Positions 4,836 through 11,665 of a DNA stretch of 47,716 nucleotides are shown here, one piece after another. The notes beneath the pieces are model-generated. The model made no database searches. It saw only the letters and a list, made by a program, of their open reading frames with translations, and was not told the DNA's origin. The stretch is from contig DUEG01000005.1 in the NCBI GenBank assembly GCA_011176615.1, positions 1-47,716 on the forward strand. Reading direction: 5' to 3'. The position numbers were made by a program, and so were the translations under genes. Position 1 is the first letter of the stretch. Each line of letters starts with the position of its first letter. This DNA comes from Anaerolineae bacterium. Its GTDB lineage: Bacteria > Chloroflexota > Anaerolineae > Anaerolineales > UBA11858.

Positions 4836-5546
4836 TTATGATTTAAGGTCATGAATTTCTCTTTCTGACAAAAATCGCCACGATCCTGTTTTTAGATTCC
4901 CTAATCGGAGAGTTCCTATTCTAATTCTAATGATGCGTTTAACATACAAACCGGTAAGTTGTCCCATTTCTCGAATTTGGCGTTTTTTTCCTTCAAACAA
5001 AATTACAGAAAGCCAAGCGCCTTTGTCCTTGTGCGTACTCAATATCTTCACCTTGGCAGGAATAGTTCTATGTCCATCTAACAATACGATACCACTTTTC
5101 CATGCTTTAATCTGCTTGTCATCTGGGATTTTTGAGACTAAAACTTTGTACTCTTTTTCGTGTTGATAACGTGGGTGGGTTAATTTGTTTGTTAGTTCGC
5201 CATCGTTCGTGAGCAGGATTAAACCCTCACTATCAATGTCGAGCCGTCCTACGGGGTAAATATGGCCTAGATTTGGAATTAAATCAAGTACGGTTCTCCT
5301 ATTTTCCTTTGTCTTTGTAGTAGAAAGCACGCCTCGTGGTTTATTAAGGGCAATATAAATGTTTGATGCCGGTCCCTTAATTATCTTGTTATCAAGGGAA
5401 ATTTTGTCTTTTGATATATCAACTTTCATTCCGAGTTTTGCTTTTTTACCGTTTACGTAGACGCGACCATCAGAAATTAACTTTTCACAACTACGCCGAG
5501 ACCCTATACCGGCATGTGCGAGAAACTTTTGCAATCTTTCTTCCAT
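4836..5546 (-). CDS. rluB: rRNA pseudouridine synthase, RluB/RsuA family
   Basis: S4 domain ERLQKFLAHAGIGSRR, LNKPRG, catalytic VGRLDIDSEGL, EGKKRQIR. Confidence 0.9.
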   Translation of the reverse strand: MEERLQKFLAHAGIGSRRSCEKLISDGRVYVNGKKAKLGMKVDISKDKISLDNKIIKGPASNIYIALNKPRGVLSTTKTKENRRTVLDLIPNLGHIYPVGRLDIDSEGLILLTNDGELTNKLTHPRYQHEKEYKVLVSKIPDDKQIKAWKSGIVLLDGHRTIPAKVKILSTHKDKGAWLSVILFEGKKRQIREMGQLTGLYVKRIIRIRIGTLRLGNLKTGSWRFLSEREIHDLKS

Positions 5547-5648: not shown

Positions 5649-6620
5649 TTAATCACAAAAAGGACAAAGCACTTTCTCTTTGATAATTGTATTCTCTTCT
5701 ACTTTTGTTCCACTAAGAATCACAGATGATTGAATAGATACATTATCTTTTATTTCGCATCCTTTTTCTATGAACACCTCTGGACCGATGAAGCAGTTCT
5801 TACCAATCTTGACATTTGGTTCAATGTGAATAGGGGGAATGAATTGCGTAGATAAATTAATTAATTCTTTATCAAAAAGAATATTTAATTCATTGTTTCG
5901 TCTTAAGTAAGCGCGATTTACATTTAATAAGTCTTGGGGAGAAGTAACTGTATAACGCTCAGACACATGGTATCCATAAACTCCGCCTTCATCTTCAATC
6001 ATCATTTGGATTGCATCTTGAAGCTCAAATTCATTTCTTGGAGATATATCTATCTTGTCTAAATACCCCAATATTCTTTTAGAGAATCCATAAATTGGAA
6101 TGCTTCCTATATTGCTTGGCGCCTTATCCAGAGAAGGCTTTTCAACAATCCTCTTGATGGAATTGTCTCCGTTGAGCTCAACGATGCCACTTTTAGGAAT
6201 CATCTCATCGGGTAATGAAATAAGCGTTAACAGCCCATTATACTGTTTATTATTTCTCCATGTAGTGAGGAATCTGTTCAAGTCATCTAGAGGAATCAAA
6301 TTGTCACATGCAGAAAGGATAAAATTATTATTAATAACCTGTGATGCTTGTTTCAAGGCATGCGCCATCCCAAGTTGTTGGTCTTGAAAGACAAAAGTGA
6401 ATTTTATATCATACGAGGTATTTTTTTCTAAATGTGGACGAATACTCTTGTCATTAGGTCTGATAACAATTATAAATTCATGGATATCGTGTAAATAAAA
6501 GGATTCAATTACTCTTTCAACCATTGGTTTTCCAACAATAGGTTGCATTGCTTTCGATCGATATTGTGTCAGTAACCCCAATCGTTTTCCGCTACCAGCC
6601 GCTAATATTACTGCCTGCAT
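5649..6620 (-). CDS. Sugar-1-phosphate nucleotidyltransferase with C-terminal left-handed beta-helix
   Basis: AVILAAGSGKRL, QLGMAHAL, IVEKP, SPRNEFELQDAI; hexapeptide-like repeats at the C-terminus; start overlaps the kinase stop (TAATG). Confidence 0.88.
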   Translation of the reverse strand: MQAVILAAGSGKRLGLLTQYRSKAMQPIVGKPMVERVIESFYLHDIHEFIIVIRPNDKSIRPHLEKNTSYDIKFTFVFQDQQLGMAHALKQASQVINNNFILSACDNLIPLDDLNRFLTTWRNNKQYNGLLTLISLPDEMIPKSGIVELNGDNSIKRIVEKPSLDKAPSNIGSIPIYGFSKRILGYLDKIDISPRNEFELQDAIQMMIEDEGGVYGYHVSERYTVTSPQDLLNVNRAYLRRNNELNILFDKELINLSTQFIPPIHIEPNVKIGKNCFIGPEVFIEKGCEIKDNVSIQSSVILSGTKVEENTIIKEKVLCPFCD

Positions 6621-7789
6621 TAGATTAAACCAGTCTTATTTTCTTTATCTTTAATACTAAGACCTTGAACTGATATCTTTGGAGTATAGATAGAAGCATT
6701 TTGTAGGTTCAATTCCTTGATTTGTTTTTCCCAAACATCCGCTAGTTCGTTTTCTTTTCCAGGCTTGACCAATGCGTAGATAGAACCTCCTTGACCGGCG
6801 CCTGTAAGTTTTGCGCCTAACGCATGCTGATTTAAGGCGGTTTGAATTAATAGATTATTTAATCGTCCGGCGCCTTCTTGGAAACCGCAATAGTTCATCA
6901 TATCATTGACAACACCATGATTTAAGTTCATCATTTGACCAAAAGTTTCCATCTCGCTATTAAGTAACGCAATTTTTCCTTTCCAAGCCGTTTCCCAAAT
7001 TCTCTCCATATATTTAATCATCGGCGGCTTGGAACCACCCTTGTGATACCAAGTGTTATACTCCTCAAGATATTTTGTGCGCATCGCGTGATGTATATTT
7101 CCCGAATCGTGTTTAAGCCCTGTTGTTATTGCTACAAGGGAAAGTTTTCCTGCCCAACGATTTAAAATTTCATAAGTAGCGAATGGTTCCTGAGTGATAG
7201 ATTTATGAAAAAGTTTTCCGCGATAATCGATATATGCAAGACCACCGAAAATTGGCACATATCGATCCGCAAACCCGCATGTAATTCCTAATTCATTTTC
7301 CTCGATACGCTGAGTCATTTCTGCCAAAACATAGTTATTCATTATTTGTGTATCGAGGTGATAAAATTCGCGTAATGCGGCTAAGGTTAAAATAACGAAT
7401 AATGATGATCCGCCCAATCCGCTTTGTCGTGGTACTTCGCTCCATGTTGTAAGTCTAAAGCCACGTCTACAAATTTTGGATCTAAATTCAGGTGATATCT
7501 TTAAAAGAAAATTAAAAGCCCCCTTACAGAGTTTTGGCTCATCATCCATTGGTATAAGAGAATTTGATAACTCGCATTCAAAAACAGAATTTAGAGGAAA
7601 GTCCTTGGATTGATTATCATTGCCTGAGCCGGGCGCTCGCATTTCAAATACGATCTTGTCTGATGGTTCAATAATGGCATGAGCATAAAGAGATATTGCC
7701 ATTGAAATTGTTGCGAAATCACCCTCAACTGCATCGCTTGGATTTCCCAGTATGTTGATGCGTGCTGGTACCTTTAAATAATATGACAT
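6620..7789 (-). CDS. GHMP-family sugar kinase, glucuronokinase-like
   Basis: PARINILGNPSD, VPRQSGLGGSS, ELGITCGFADR, DSGNIH, GAKLTGAGQGG; the LGNPSD, PRQ and DSGxxH variants match plant glucuronokinase as I recall it. Confidence 0.8.
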   Translation of the reverse strand: MSYYLKVPARINILGNPSDAVEGDFATISMAISLYAHAIIEPSDKIVFEMRAPGSGNDNQSKDFPLNSVFECELSNSLIPMDDEPKLCKGAFNFLLKISPEFRSKICRRGFRLTTWSEVPRQSGLGGSSLFVILTLAALREFYHLDTQIMNNYVLAEMTQRIEENELGITCGFADRYVPIFGGLAYIDYRGKLFHKSITQEPFATYEILNRWAGKLSLVAITTGLKHDSGNIHHAMRTKYLEEYNTWYHKGGSKPPMIKYMERIWETAWKGKIALLNSEMETFGQMMNLNHGVVNDMMNYCGFQEGAGRLNNLLIQTALNQHALGAKLTGAGQGGSIYALVKPGKENELADVWEKQIKELNLQNASIYTPKISVQGLSIKDKENKTGLI

Positions 7790-7880
7790 TTCTCCTCCGC
7801 ATCTTTCCCGCGTGAATTAAATAATTGTATCTTGGAGGGAAAGGCAATTGGAATATATATGTGCGCCTAAGAAAGTGTAC

Positions 7881-8498
7881 TCAAAATTCGGATTTACCTA
7901 GTTCAGCATTTTCCTCAAATTGAACATGTTTGGAATTGTTATTCTCATTATTAATTTGGCTAGTACTATCATTATCGATGGGAGGAAGTTTTTCTAATGA
8001 TTCGAGACCAAAATACTTGAGAAAATCAGGTGTTGTTGTATATAATATTGGTCTTCCTGGACTATCTGCACGTCCGACATCTTCTATCAAGCCTTTGCTA
8101 AGCATATTTTGGATGACACTGTCACTGTTAACTCCACGGATTGAATCAACCTGTGGACGGGTGATTGGTTGTTTATAGGCAATAATTGCAAGGGTTTCAA
8201 GGGCAGCGCGGCTGAGTTTGCTGGTGGTTTCAATGTTTAGAAAAGTTTCTATAAGGTGAGAGATTTCAGGCGCGCTGATCAACTGAACATGATTTTTGTG
8301 CCTCTGAACGCGAATTCCTCGTATTTTTAAGTTGTTTTCTAAAATGCTGATTTGTTTTTCTATTTCGCGAGTGCTAAGATTTAACAATGCGGCTAATTGA
8401 TGAATGCTAATGGGCGATGGCGAAACAAAAAGGAGTGCCTCAATTTTTGCACAATAATCTAAACCATTTACAATTCTTTCGCTTATGTTGTTTGACAT
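7881..8498 (-). CDS. scpB: SMC-Scp complex subunit ScpB
   Basis: IEALLFVS, LSRAALETLAIIAYKQPITR, IRGVNS, GRPILYTTT..FLKYFGL. Confidence 0.95.
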   Translation of the reverse strand: MSNNISERIVNGLDYCAKIEALLFVSPSPISIHQLAALLNLSTREIEKQISILENNLKIRGIRVQRHKNHVQLISAPEISHLIETFLNIETTSKLSRAALETLAIIAYKQPITRPQVDSIRGVNSDSVIQNMLSKGLIEDVGRADSPGRPILYTTTPDFLKYFGLESLEKLPPIDNDSTSQINNENNNSKHVQFEENAELGKSEF

Positions 8499-10238: not shown

Positions 10239-11198
10239 ATGCGAATATTGATAACGGGTGCTGCGGGTTTTCTGGGTTCACATTTGTGCGACAAGTTATT
10301 AGATGAGGGTCATAGTGTTGTGGGGATGGATAATTTTATAACGGGGAATCCAGATAATCTTGCCCATCTTGCAGGGCACGAACGTTTTTCTTTTATTCGA
10401 CATGATGTGTCAAATTTTATTTTTGTTCCAGGAAAATTAGACGCTGTTCTGCATTTTGCGTCTCCAGCAAGTCCGAATCCGAATTCTCCGTATGGATATG
10501 TAAATTTGCCTATCCAAACTATGAAAGCCGGCGCTTTAGGCACACACAACACATTAGGGGTTGCTAGAGCACATGATGCAAGGTTTATGCTTGCCTCAAC
10601 AAGTGAAATATATGGAGATCCGCTTGAACATCCCCAAAAAGAAAGTTATTGGGGACATGTTAATCCCATTGGATTACGCTCTGTTTACGATGAGGCAAAG
10701 CGGTTTGCAGAGGCGCTTACAATGGCGTATCACAGATTTCATGGGATCAACACTTGTATTGTTCGGATATTTAACACATATGGACCAAGGATGCGTATAG
10801 ACGACGGAAGGGTCGTGCCAAACTTCTTGAGTCAAGGCTTGAAGGGCGAACGCTTATCAATATTTGGTGATGGTTCGCAAACGCGGAGTTTTTGTTATGT
10901 GGATGATTTGATTAATGGAATTTATAAACTTTTAATATCAAGTATTCACGATCCTGTAAATATTGGGAATCCTTCAGAAATTAGCATATTAGAGTTTGCA
11001 AAAATAATCAATCGTCTCACAAGCAATAATGCGGGTTACGAATTAAAACCCCAACAAAGAGGGGAAGGAGACCCTCAGCGAAGGAGACCAGACATATCTC
11101 GAGCAAGAGAAATATTAAATTGGGAGCCAGAGATTGATGTGGAGGACGGATTAGAAAAAACCATACCCTATTTTAAAGAGAAATTAGGGATTCCATGA
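10239..11198 (+). CDS. uxs: UDP-glucuronate decarboxylase (UDP-xylose synthase) family SDR
   Basis: [73 protein letters not shown]. Confidence 0.9.
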
Positions 11199-11665
11199 TT
11201 TTTATATCCATAATAAAGAATTCACGCGAGAGGAAAAGGTTTATTCGTTTTGCGGTCGTTGGAGCAATAGGGGCTTTTGTGGATTTCGGCACATTTAACC
11301 TGTTGTCTCAAGTTTTCCATATTGATCCTGTAATAGCAAGTATTACTTCATTCATAACTGCGCTTACGAGTAATTTTATTTGGAACCGGTACTGGACTTA
11401 TCCAGATTCTCGAACAAAGGCTGTTTCCCAACAAGTATTTCAATTTGCTGTAGTAAACTTGATTGGACTGGCGATAAGAACCCCAATATTTTTTGGATTC
11501 AGTAAATTATTTTTGTATTTCATTAATAGAATAAAGATATTTGAAACATTTTCAATATCAAACGAAGTCTTTGGAAACAATGTCGCACTAGCAGTTGCCA
11601 TAATTGTAGTAATGTTCTGGAATTATTTTGCAAATCGTTATTGGACATATAGTGATGTAAATTAG
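11195..11665 (+). CDS. GtrA-family membrane protein (lipid-linked sugar translocase)
   Basis: [21 protein letters not shown] and [11 protein letters not shown]; four TM segments; ATGA overlap with uxs. Confidence 0.9.

Follow-up and report, generated by a model that had tools for sequence, protein, structure and literature searches.

A kinase and nucleotidyltransferase gene pair from an Anaerolineae genome as a candidate sugar-salvage module distantly related to glucuronokinase

In this study, we investigated a 47,716-nucleotide stretch of DNA from an Anaerolineae bacterium (contig DUEG01000005.1 of assembly GCA_011176615.1), hereafter the window, with the focus on two minus-strand genes encoding a GHMP-superfamily kinase (P0001) and a sugar-1-phosphate nucleotidyltransferase (P0002). 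The kinase belongs to a family, named WIN here, which on the sequences compared is best described as a sister-level relative of the glucuronokinases (the plant and fish clade, hereafter GlcAK) and not a member of them, and as a previously uncharacterised subfamily. Judged from its anatomy and conservation, the pair is very probably a salvage module consisting of an anomeric kinase and a nucleoside diphosphate (NDP)-sugar pyrophosphorylase. A hexuronate is our leading guess for the substrate, held tentatively and at a little under an even chance, and D-glucuronate (GlcA) itself is possible though rather unlikely. Bacteria obtain UDP-GlcA by the textbook route of UDP-glucose dehydrogenase, and to our knowledge plants and lower animals are the only organisms in which a kinase has been shown to salvage uronic acids. 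The original prediction had read the two genes as a plant-type glucuronokinase homologue and its transferase, forming a bacterial route from free glucuronate to UDP-GlcA.

The two genes lie on the minus strand in the order scpB, kinase, transferase, rluB-type pseudouridine synthase and PMT_2/Agl23-like protein with NHL repeats (Table 1). As had been described before, the stop of the kinase overlaps the start of the transferase in a TAATG: the kinase TAA and the transferase ATG have one base (6620) in common, and the minus strand reads ...ggtttaatcTAATGcaggcag... at this point. This overlap, read from the sequence, is taken as indicating that the two genes are translationally coupled. Promoter and terminator scans of the window gave background level only (19 promoter-like sites against 15.1 expected).

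With reference to the kinase, all the motifs quoted in the original prediction were found in the translation of P0001, namely ARINILGNPSD, VPRQSGLGGSS, ENELGITCGFADR...FGGLAYIDY, DSGNIH, GKIALLN and MNLN. Pfam detected GHMP_kinases_N (E 1.7e-12, 47.8 bits, cut-off 22.3) and GHMP_kinases_C (E 2.3e-07, 31.5 bits, cut-off 21), and these two domains, together with the P-loop of motif II, motif III and the fold, identify the protein as a GHMP kinase. The residues concerned are G15-N-P-S-D19 in motif I, P120-R-Q-S-G-L-G-G-S-S in motif II, G172-F-A-D175-R176-Y around the catalytic base, H233 and R237, and K327-L-T-G-A-G-Q-G-G-S in motif III. The AlphaFold2 model (mean predicted local distance difference test 89.1, predicted template-modelling score 0.90) found its top solved neighbours by Foldseek in the heptokinase WcbL (4usk) and Pyrococcus furiosus GalK (1s4e), with template-modelling scores of 0.75–0.84 at no more than 20% identity, and the nearest solved relatives by sequence were the HddA-type kinases 3k85 (E 2.1e-16) and 4n3o. 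The PDB copy searched holds no glucuronokinase structure, and the ESM Atlas returned only generic GHMP clusters. A galactokinase assignment was rejected, as P0001 lacks the GEHxDY signature and reached 52.5 bits with TIGR00131, far below the cut-off of 226.65; the genuine GalK of the same genome (G000; contig C14) scored 348.8 bits with this model.

The reference GlcAK sequences comprised named plant glucuronokinases and the fish and fungal fusions annotated as 'glucuronokinase with putative uridyl pyrophosphorylase', which were reached through a chytrid match of P0001 and a EukProt match. P0001 aligned with the plant, fish and fungal GlcAKs over the full length at 23–27% identity (25–27% with the plant enzymes; pairwise BLAST E 6e-17 to 6e-23), a similarity that can be taken as far beyond chance. 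Two trees were built, one with FastTree (117 rows) and one quick IQ-TREE maximum likelihood tree (60 rows, LG+C20 with posterior mean site frequencies); statements on the latter rest on the Shimodaira-Hasegawa-like approximate likelihood ratio test (SH-aLRT) and one approximately unbiased (AU) test. WIN and GlcAK formed separate clades in both trees (FastTree and IQ-TREE supports of 100 and 99 for WIN, and of 98 and 98 for GlcAK), the quick tree holding 14 WIN rows (SH-aLRT 99) and 19 GlcAK rows (98), and the GlcAK clade included plants, algae, fish, fungi and bacterial relatives. By these separate and strongly supported clades, P0001 falls outside the glucuronokinase clade. In the quick tree, GlcAK and WIN, together with two uncharacterised clades called X and Y here, clustered with each other (SH-aLRT 94), the HddA-like (100) and GalK-like (98) sequences standing outside, so the earlier claim that the kinase tracks glucuronokinase better than GalK or HddA was borne out for this superclade with the GNPSD motif. 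The clustering with HddA or fucokinase clades, which the original prediction had named as evidence against itself, was not seen in the GHMP trees. Within the superclade, the free quick tree paired WIN with X at a support of 63 only, and the tree constrained to join WIN with GlcAK was 3.5 log-likelihood units better than the free quick tree (p-AU 0.63), so that sister status is neither shown nor rejected. By hhalign, the WIN profile matched GlcAK (E 1e-50, score 366, 24% identity) better than the HddA-like profile (E 1e-37, score 273, 25% identity). When 41 related genomes were searched with the GlcAK profile, no true GlcAK orthologue was found; the best matches were the WIN proteins at 137–154 bits, followed by clade X at 122 bits.

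For detailed comparison of residues, 465 kinases of at least 250 amino acids (aa) were aligned to one profile and assigned to clades by best match. An arginine follows the catalytic aspartate in 144 of 148 WIN and 258 of 266 GlcAK sequences, against 1/33 in clade X, 0/6 in clade Y, 0/9 in HddA and 0/3 in GalK-like sequences, and the arginine of PRQ before the P-loop is distributed in a similar manner (WIN 131/148, GlcAK 254/266, X 7/33, Y 3/6, HddA 0/9, GalK-like 0/3). P0001 carries both (R121 with Q122, and R176), and the combined pattern is restricted to WIN and GlcAK. GNPSD, His233 and Arg237 are common to WIN, GlcAK and X; N16 and P17 of motif I were present in 137/148 WIN, 261/266 GlcAK and also 28/33 clade X sequences, and the ARINILGNPSD of P0001 agrees with the GlcAK motif I, (A/P)R(V/I)xxLGNPSD. 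The plant motifs given in the original prediction proved essentially right, since Citrus P0447, Glycine P0519 and others show them in the alignment together with DSGKVH. The residue before the catalytic aspartate sets WIN apart, being Ala in 140/148 WIN sequences, and Gln in GlcAK (265/266), X (28/33), Y (6/6) and HddA (9/9), with Met in GalK-like sequences (3/3). WIN keeps the canonical GAGxGG motif III, in which GlcAK has a two-residue deletion, and carries insertions of its own at about residues 20–25, 243–255 and 299–307.

Compared with glucuronokinase (EC 2.7.1.43; Arabidopsis GlcAK and the zebrafish GKUP kinase domain), P0001 is thus alike in the GHMP fold, GNPSD, PRQ and Asp-Arg, in the equivalents of His233 and Arg237, in the full-length alignment, and in being followed by a sugar-1-phosphate pyrophosphorylase step. 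It is unlike glucuronokinase in its low identity, its separate clade, the Ala for Gln before the catalytic Asp, the Tyr for Val after the Arg, GAGxGG in place of GS-GG, and its own insertions. The earlier description as a plant-type glucuronokinase homologue stands in the sense of a distant relative with PRQ and Asp-Arg, but not in the sense of an orthologue, given the separate clades and the missing Gln and short motif III. What is new here is an uncharacterised kinase family with a dedicated transferase partner and the signature residues R121, A174, R176, H233 and R237.

P0002 contains an NTP_transferase domain (E 4.6e-31, 108.7 bits, cut-off 21.2), followed by a short hexapeptide-repeat tail (E 1.8e-13) that forms a C-terminal left-handed beta-helix (LbH). 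All curated NCBIfam scores were below their cut-offs, the best being TIGR03992 (186.4 bits, cut-off 292.1), then rmlA_long (158.8 bits), and the equivalog cut-offs of GlmU, RmlA, GalU and ManC were not reached. The nearest solved relative was ST0452 of Sulfolobus tokodaii (5z09/2ggo, 82 bits), and the LbH-tailed RmlA-long/ST0452 type appears to be the closest description of P0002. It resembles these proteins in the N-terminal Rossmann-like NTP_transferase domain followed by the beta-helix, in the GxGxRL loop, and in a base-reading Gln, as the Gln of its FQDQQLGMAHAL segment aligns with that of ST0452, a residue which we take to be the uracil/thymine binder of RmlA and GlmU. It differs from them in having a beta-helix of about 55 residues only, which makes an acetyltransferase function unlikely, and in scoring below every curated cut-off. 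The genome encodes a separate GlmU, two GlgC, two ManC-like proteins and one RmlA-long/AglF-like glucose-1-phosphate (Glc-1-P) transferase, of which P0002 is a paralogue; P0002 itself falls in a clade of WIN transferases of its own (SH-like support 99). That P0002 could be orthologous to the pyrophosphorylase domain of GKUP fusions from fish and fungi was rejected, as no BLAST match was found at E <= 1e-3 and the clades are separate. The profile of the WIN transferases gave 26–33 bits for fish GKUP domains against 103–116 bits for GalU-like partners, and from these comparisons P0002 is unrelated, beyond superfamily level, to the fish-fusion domain as well as to the GalU-like partner of GlcAK.

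The pairing of the two genes was found to be conserved. A contig scan with one genome per species detected no relative when a single protein was the query, and detected 22 WIN loci with an alignment-based query, distributed by record title over Chloroflexota (13), Verrucomicrobiota (2), Deltaproteobacteria (1), Promethearchaeota (2) and unclassified records (4). In 16 of these 22 loci, a same-strand transferase gene lies next to the kinase at less than 400 nucleotides (nt), and in two more a single gene separates them, which supports the coupling of a GHMP sugar kinase to a sugar-1-phosphate nucleotidyltransferase that had been proposed; no transferase accompanies the kinase in the two Verrucomicrobiota and two Promethearchaeota loci. 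Among seven loci from relatives, four have the transferase adjacent and two have one gene between, two of the seven being the same records as in the scan (L030/L082 and L031/L085). Besides the transferase, no neighbour recurs widely at WIN loci. The nearest relatives of P0001 are metagenome proteins 54–61% identical to it, the named ones being labelled Anaerolineae or Chloroflexota, and WIN occurs mainly in Anaerolineae; automatic JGI names of family members are in a few cases 'glucuronokinase' and otherwise 'galactokinase' or 'heptose-7-phosphate kinase'.

Nine kinase matches at E <= 1e-20 were obtained from the 41 related genomes, eight of them WIN (E <= 3e-132) and one, in G004, of another clade, and in an even phylum-wide sample of 401 genomes WIN was detected in G000 only (2.1 Mb, 82.7% complete). 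No WIN kinase was found in the genome of the same genus (G001, 96% complete). Contig C62 of that genome shares a collinear run of 13 genes with the window (57–87% protein identity) and has rluB directly after scpB, so that the pair represents a two-gene indel; no insertion scar was visible, as the intergenic sequences of the two genomes are not alignable. The two WIN genes thus make up an accessory module that is complete in itself.

Pairs built on the same plan are found around other kinases of the superclade. A metagenome scan with an alignment of the GlcAK clade detected 80 loci (L160–L239) with kinases 40–47% identical to P0229, and these true GlcAK-clade prokaryotic kinases are 41–45% identical to the fish kinase domain. 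An adjacent same-strand transferase was present in 48 of the 80, and in 35 of the 45 loci that are flanked by 900 nt or more on each side; it is GalU-like and falls into one clade with the partners of clade X (support 100), apart from the WIN partners (99). These modules are like the WIN pair in their two-gene kinase/transferase plan, but the WIN kinase is not a GlcAK orthologue and its transferase is not GalU-like. The two-gene arrangement of the original prediction is therefore widespread in metagenomes, but for this other kinase clade with a GalU-like transferase, and the pair in the window is a third, non-orthologous version of the module. Homologues of GlcAK in 'a few bacteria' are listed by Pieslinger et al., 2010 (PMC2823444), and Gangl et al. 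(PMC3938481) noted that the pyrophosphorylase domain of fish has relatives in bacteria and archaea that stand alone. The literature searched yielded no characterised bacterial glucuronokinase and no experimental follow-up of these genuine GlcAK orthologues, which are common beside a transferase in environmental prokaryotes.

Clade X, from Chloroflexota, shares GNPSD, His233, Arg237 and the canonical motif III with WIN, and is paired with a nucleotidyltransferase at 7 of 15 loci. It differs from WIN in lacking Asp-Arg (present in 1/33) and mostly the PRQ arginine (present in 7/33), and in a GalU-like partner (262.9 bits to TIGR01099). Among the 41 relatives, the WIN-bearing genomes had no further match at E <= 1e-20, and the one genome with clade X (G004) had none at the level of WIN. 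Clade X stands beside UxaC and UxaE in G004 and beside UxaE in G054 (2 of 15 loci), which provides a modest link between the superclade and uronates. At these two loci (L034 on G004:C156 and L071 on G054:C474), the kinase and the GalU-like transferase lie among genes for UxaC, UxaE, a short-chain dehydrogenase/reductase (SDR), a LarN-like protein, 6-phosphogluconate dehydrogenase and a PfkB kinase, a cluster that appears related to uronates. A wider conjecture, to which we give a low probability, would be that prokaryotes hold at least three non-orthologous modules of uronic-acid 1-kinase and nucleotidyltransferase (GlcAK/GalU-like, X/GalU-like and WIN/LbH-tailed), each converting a different acidic sugar directly into the NDP form and bypassing UDP-glucose dehydrogenase, with the WIN pair feeding UDP-GlcA or a sister UDP-uronate to the universally conserved UDP-glucuronate decarboxylase (UXS) and xylose glycosylation machinery, and the eukaryotic GlcAK/GKUP as one offshoot.

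For the WIN pair, we propose that P0001 would use ATP to phosphorylate the anomeric hydroxyl of a free monosaccharide by the chemistry of GHMP kinases, with Asp175 as base and the P-loop of motif II, and that P0002 would then use a nucleoside triphosphate, with UTP or dTTP the probable ones, to convert the sugar-1-phosphate into an NDP-sugar with release of pyrophosphate; phosphorylation at the anomeric position, the choice of nucleotide and the identity of the sugar are inferred. The most likely class of substrate would be an acidic hexose, such as D-glucuronate or a close relative, for example another hexuronate, and the product could feed UDP-GlcA-dependent steps, for instance the UXS encoded 2.4 kb away. 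The PRQ and Asp-Arg arginines are hints of an acidic sugar, which is favoured because these two signatures are common only to WIN and the GlcA-specific enzymes. The residue preceding the catalytic Asp in Escherichia coli GalK, M173, is one that we take to tune C4 specificity; by this analogy, the Ala of WIN in place of the Gln of GlcAK could mean that the sugar differs on that side in its configuration or in a substituent.

The genome offers a possible consumer of UDP-GlcA in UXS, which is present in 40 of the 41 related genomes at 64–84% identity, and its link to the pair is circumstantial. The idea that UXS regularly accompanies the pair was rejected, as a tblastn search with the UXS of the window against 29 WIN loci returned one SDR only (32% identity). 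The original prediction had proposed a check of the genome for ugd and myo-inositol oxygenase (MIOX). Three NDP-sugar dehydrogenases were found in G000 (L001–L003; contigs C162, C68 and C30), all UDP-ManNAc-dehydrogenase-like or unassigned; one of them reached 456.3 bits against the UDP-ManNAc dehydrogenase cut-off of 459, and one has 577 aa with a 135-aa N-terminal extension and is followed by a ManC-like transferase. No clear UDP-glucose dehydrogenase (Ugd) was found in this 82.7%-complete genome, the best TuaD-type score being 203 bits against 540–578 bits in most relatives including G001, and UXS would thus be without a source of UDP-GlcA, subject to the incompleteness of the assembly. MIOX was not found either, in a search that carries no information, since its control was blank in 14 of 14 control genomes.

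Several observations weigh against the hexuronate reading. In the kinase, the GlcAK hallmark Gln before the catalytic Asp (GLQDRV) is replaced in P0001 (GFADRY), and the shortened GlcAK motif III, K(F/L)(T/P)GS-GGA, by KLTGAGQGGS; owing to the Ala, the canonical motif III and the family insertions, the sugar pocket of WIN differs from that of GlcAK. By hhalign, the profile closest to WIN is that of clade X (E 1.7e-74, score 533, 33% identity), which is closer than GlcAK. True GlcAK orthologues and clade X kinases are both partnered by a GalU-like transferase, a type to which the WIN transferase does not belong. No biochemical data on WIN, clade X or any bacterial GlcAK-clade enzyme were found in the literature searched. 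Moreover, UXS adjoins the pair in this window only, and stands in the same backbone of G001, which is without the pair. The Ugd blank may be an assembly gap, as G000 is incomplete, and a high-scoring TuaD-type Ugd match exists in four of the seven other WIN-bearing relatives, the other three having matches of 345–362 bits that were taken as the long Ugd type on the length of their open reading frames alone. The pair as a replacement for a missing Ugd was not upheld on these grounds. Searches of G000 for UxaC, GH67 and GH2 were also blank, as was the uninformative one for MIOX, so an internal source of free glucuronate is not evident.

The alternative that survives best, possible yet on the unlikely side, is the same architecture with a substrate that is not a uronic acid but a neutral or amino sugar, for example xylose, arabinose, glucose, mannose, GlcNAc or GalNAc. 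It would suit the characterised LbH-tailed transferases of the RmlA-long/ST0452/GlmU-like type, which use Glc-1-P or GlcNAc-1-P, the departure of WIN from GlcAK in residue 174 and motif III, the lack of a known function for clade X, whose profile is the nearest, and the clear importance of UDP-xylose in the order, as seen from the frequency of UXS. Against it, the genome already has the GalK mentioned above and GlmU, the two arginine signatures are shared with GlcAK only, the GNPSD superclade is not known to include a kinase of neutral sugars, and the only characterised members of it that we know of are specific for GlcA (PMC2823444, PMC3938481).

Far less probable is the recycling of a carboxylated amino sugar, MurNAc or an N-acetyl-hexosaminuronic acid, followed by uridylylation, for which an analogue exists in AmgK/MurU, an anomeric kinase followed by a uridylylation step. 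A carboxylate would suit the arginine signatures, P0002 has a weak MurU match (39 bits), N-acetyl-uronic acids are probably present in the envelope of G000, given its three UDP-ManNAc-dehydrogenase-like genes, and the WIN kinase directly follows murB, without an adjacent transferase, in loci L090 and L094. The murB arrangement, however, was limited to 2 of the 22 loci, both of one phylum, the pair has no mur gene in its vicinity in the Chloroflexota loci, and the MurU match is far under the cut-off of 250.

An HddA/HddC-like pair that would convert heptose 7-phosphate to NDP-heptose for envelope or S-layer glycans is very improbable. Its appeal lies in a GHMP kinase beside an NTP_transferase, in the closest solved structures, which are HddA-type kinases by sequence and the heptokinase WcbL by fold, and in the heptose-7-phosphate kinase annotations within the family; but HddA/HddC and WcbL belong to another clade, carry GGGTD in motif I and act on a phosphorylated heptose. 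The identification of P0001 as HddA was rejected, since it reached 75.7 bits with NCBIfam NF049969 against a cut-off of 600, has GNPSD in place of GGGTD and is separated from the HddA-like clade, whose profile is also the lowest-scoring of the three compared with WIN, and neither GmhA nor GmhB is encoded beside the pair. Just as improbable is a non-sugar substrate, mevalonate-like or another metabolite, with a transferase that is adjacent by coincidence or belongs to a cofactor pathway unconnected with glycans: the chemistry of GHMP kinases is diverse and mevalonate kinase models gave weak matches (72.9 bits), but this is far under its cut-off of 403, the trees and the structure place P0001 among sugar kinases, and the pairing with a sugar-1-phosphate transferase is conserved and translationally coupled across phyla.

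For the proposed salvage of a hexuronate, the signature residues and two recombinant proteins make the substrate question directly testable, and new pairs of anomeric kinase and pyrophosphorylase are of use in the one-pot synthesis of nucleotide sugars.

Table 1. Location of the gene pair and of neighbouring features in the window
Feature	Position	Strand	Evidence
Kinase of the GHMP superfamily, P0001, 389 aa	6620-7789	-	Translation; Pfam
Sugar-1-phosphate nucleotidyltransferase, P0002, 323 aa	5649-6620	-	Translation; Pfam
TAATG stop/start overlap of kinase and transferase	6618-6622	-	Sequence reading
Ribosome-binding site GGAGGAG, 5 bases upstream of the kinase ATG	7792-7798	-	Direct sequence reading
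scpB, upstream flank of the two-gene insertion, outside the pathway	7881-8498	-	SMC_ScpB E 1.9e-53
rluB-type pseudouridine synthase, downstream flank of the insertion, outside the pathway	4836-5546	-	Pfam; comparison with G001
UXS (UDP-glucuronate decarboxylase)	10239-11198	+	E 3.4e-105, 355 bits to human UXS1, full length
PMT_2/Agl23-like membrane protein with NHL repeats, 1117 aa	1403-4756	-	TIGR03663 210.9 bits
G5-domain/DUF348 protein, 536 aa	8556-10166	+	Divergent from scpB; kept in G001 (57% identity)

Some WIN loci display surroundings of their own. In several Anaerolineales (L030, L031, L032 and L033), the pair lies directly 3' of three same-strand genes for subunits of a 2-oxoacid:ferredoxin oxidoreductase. 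In the Verrucomicrobiota metagenome-assembled genomes L090 and L094, the stop of murB and the start of the WIN kinase overlap, and in L094 a sugar ABC transporter is found 1.5–4.7 kb upstream. The Promethearchaeota metagenome-assembled genomes L097 and L099 hold Asgard homologues of about 30% identity and 424 aa near the genes of ribosomal proteins L3 and L4, with no transferase partner. The DNA sequencing runs carrying the sequence are marine-sediment and hydrothermal-vent metagenomes, and no RNA run was listed. Within the window, UXS is translationally coupled to a gene for a GtrA-like membrane protein (10239-11665, plus strand), and the two genes, with the nearby PMT_2/Agl23-like NHL protein, suggest from their sequences a system for lipid-linked xylose (pentose) glycosylation.

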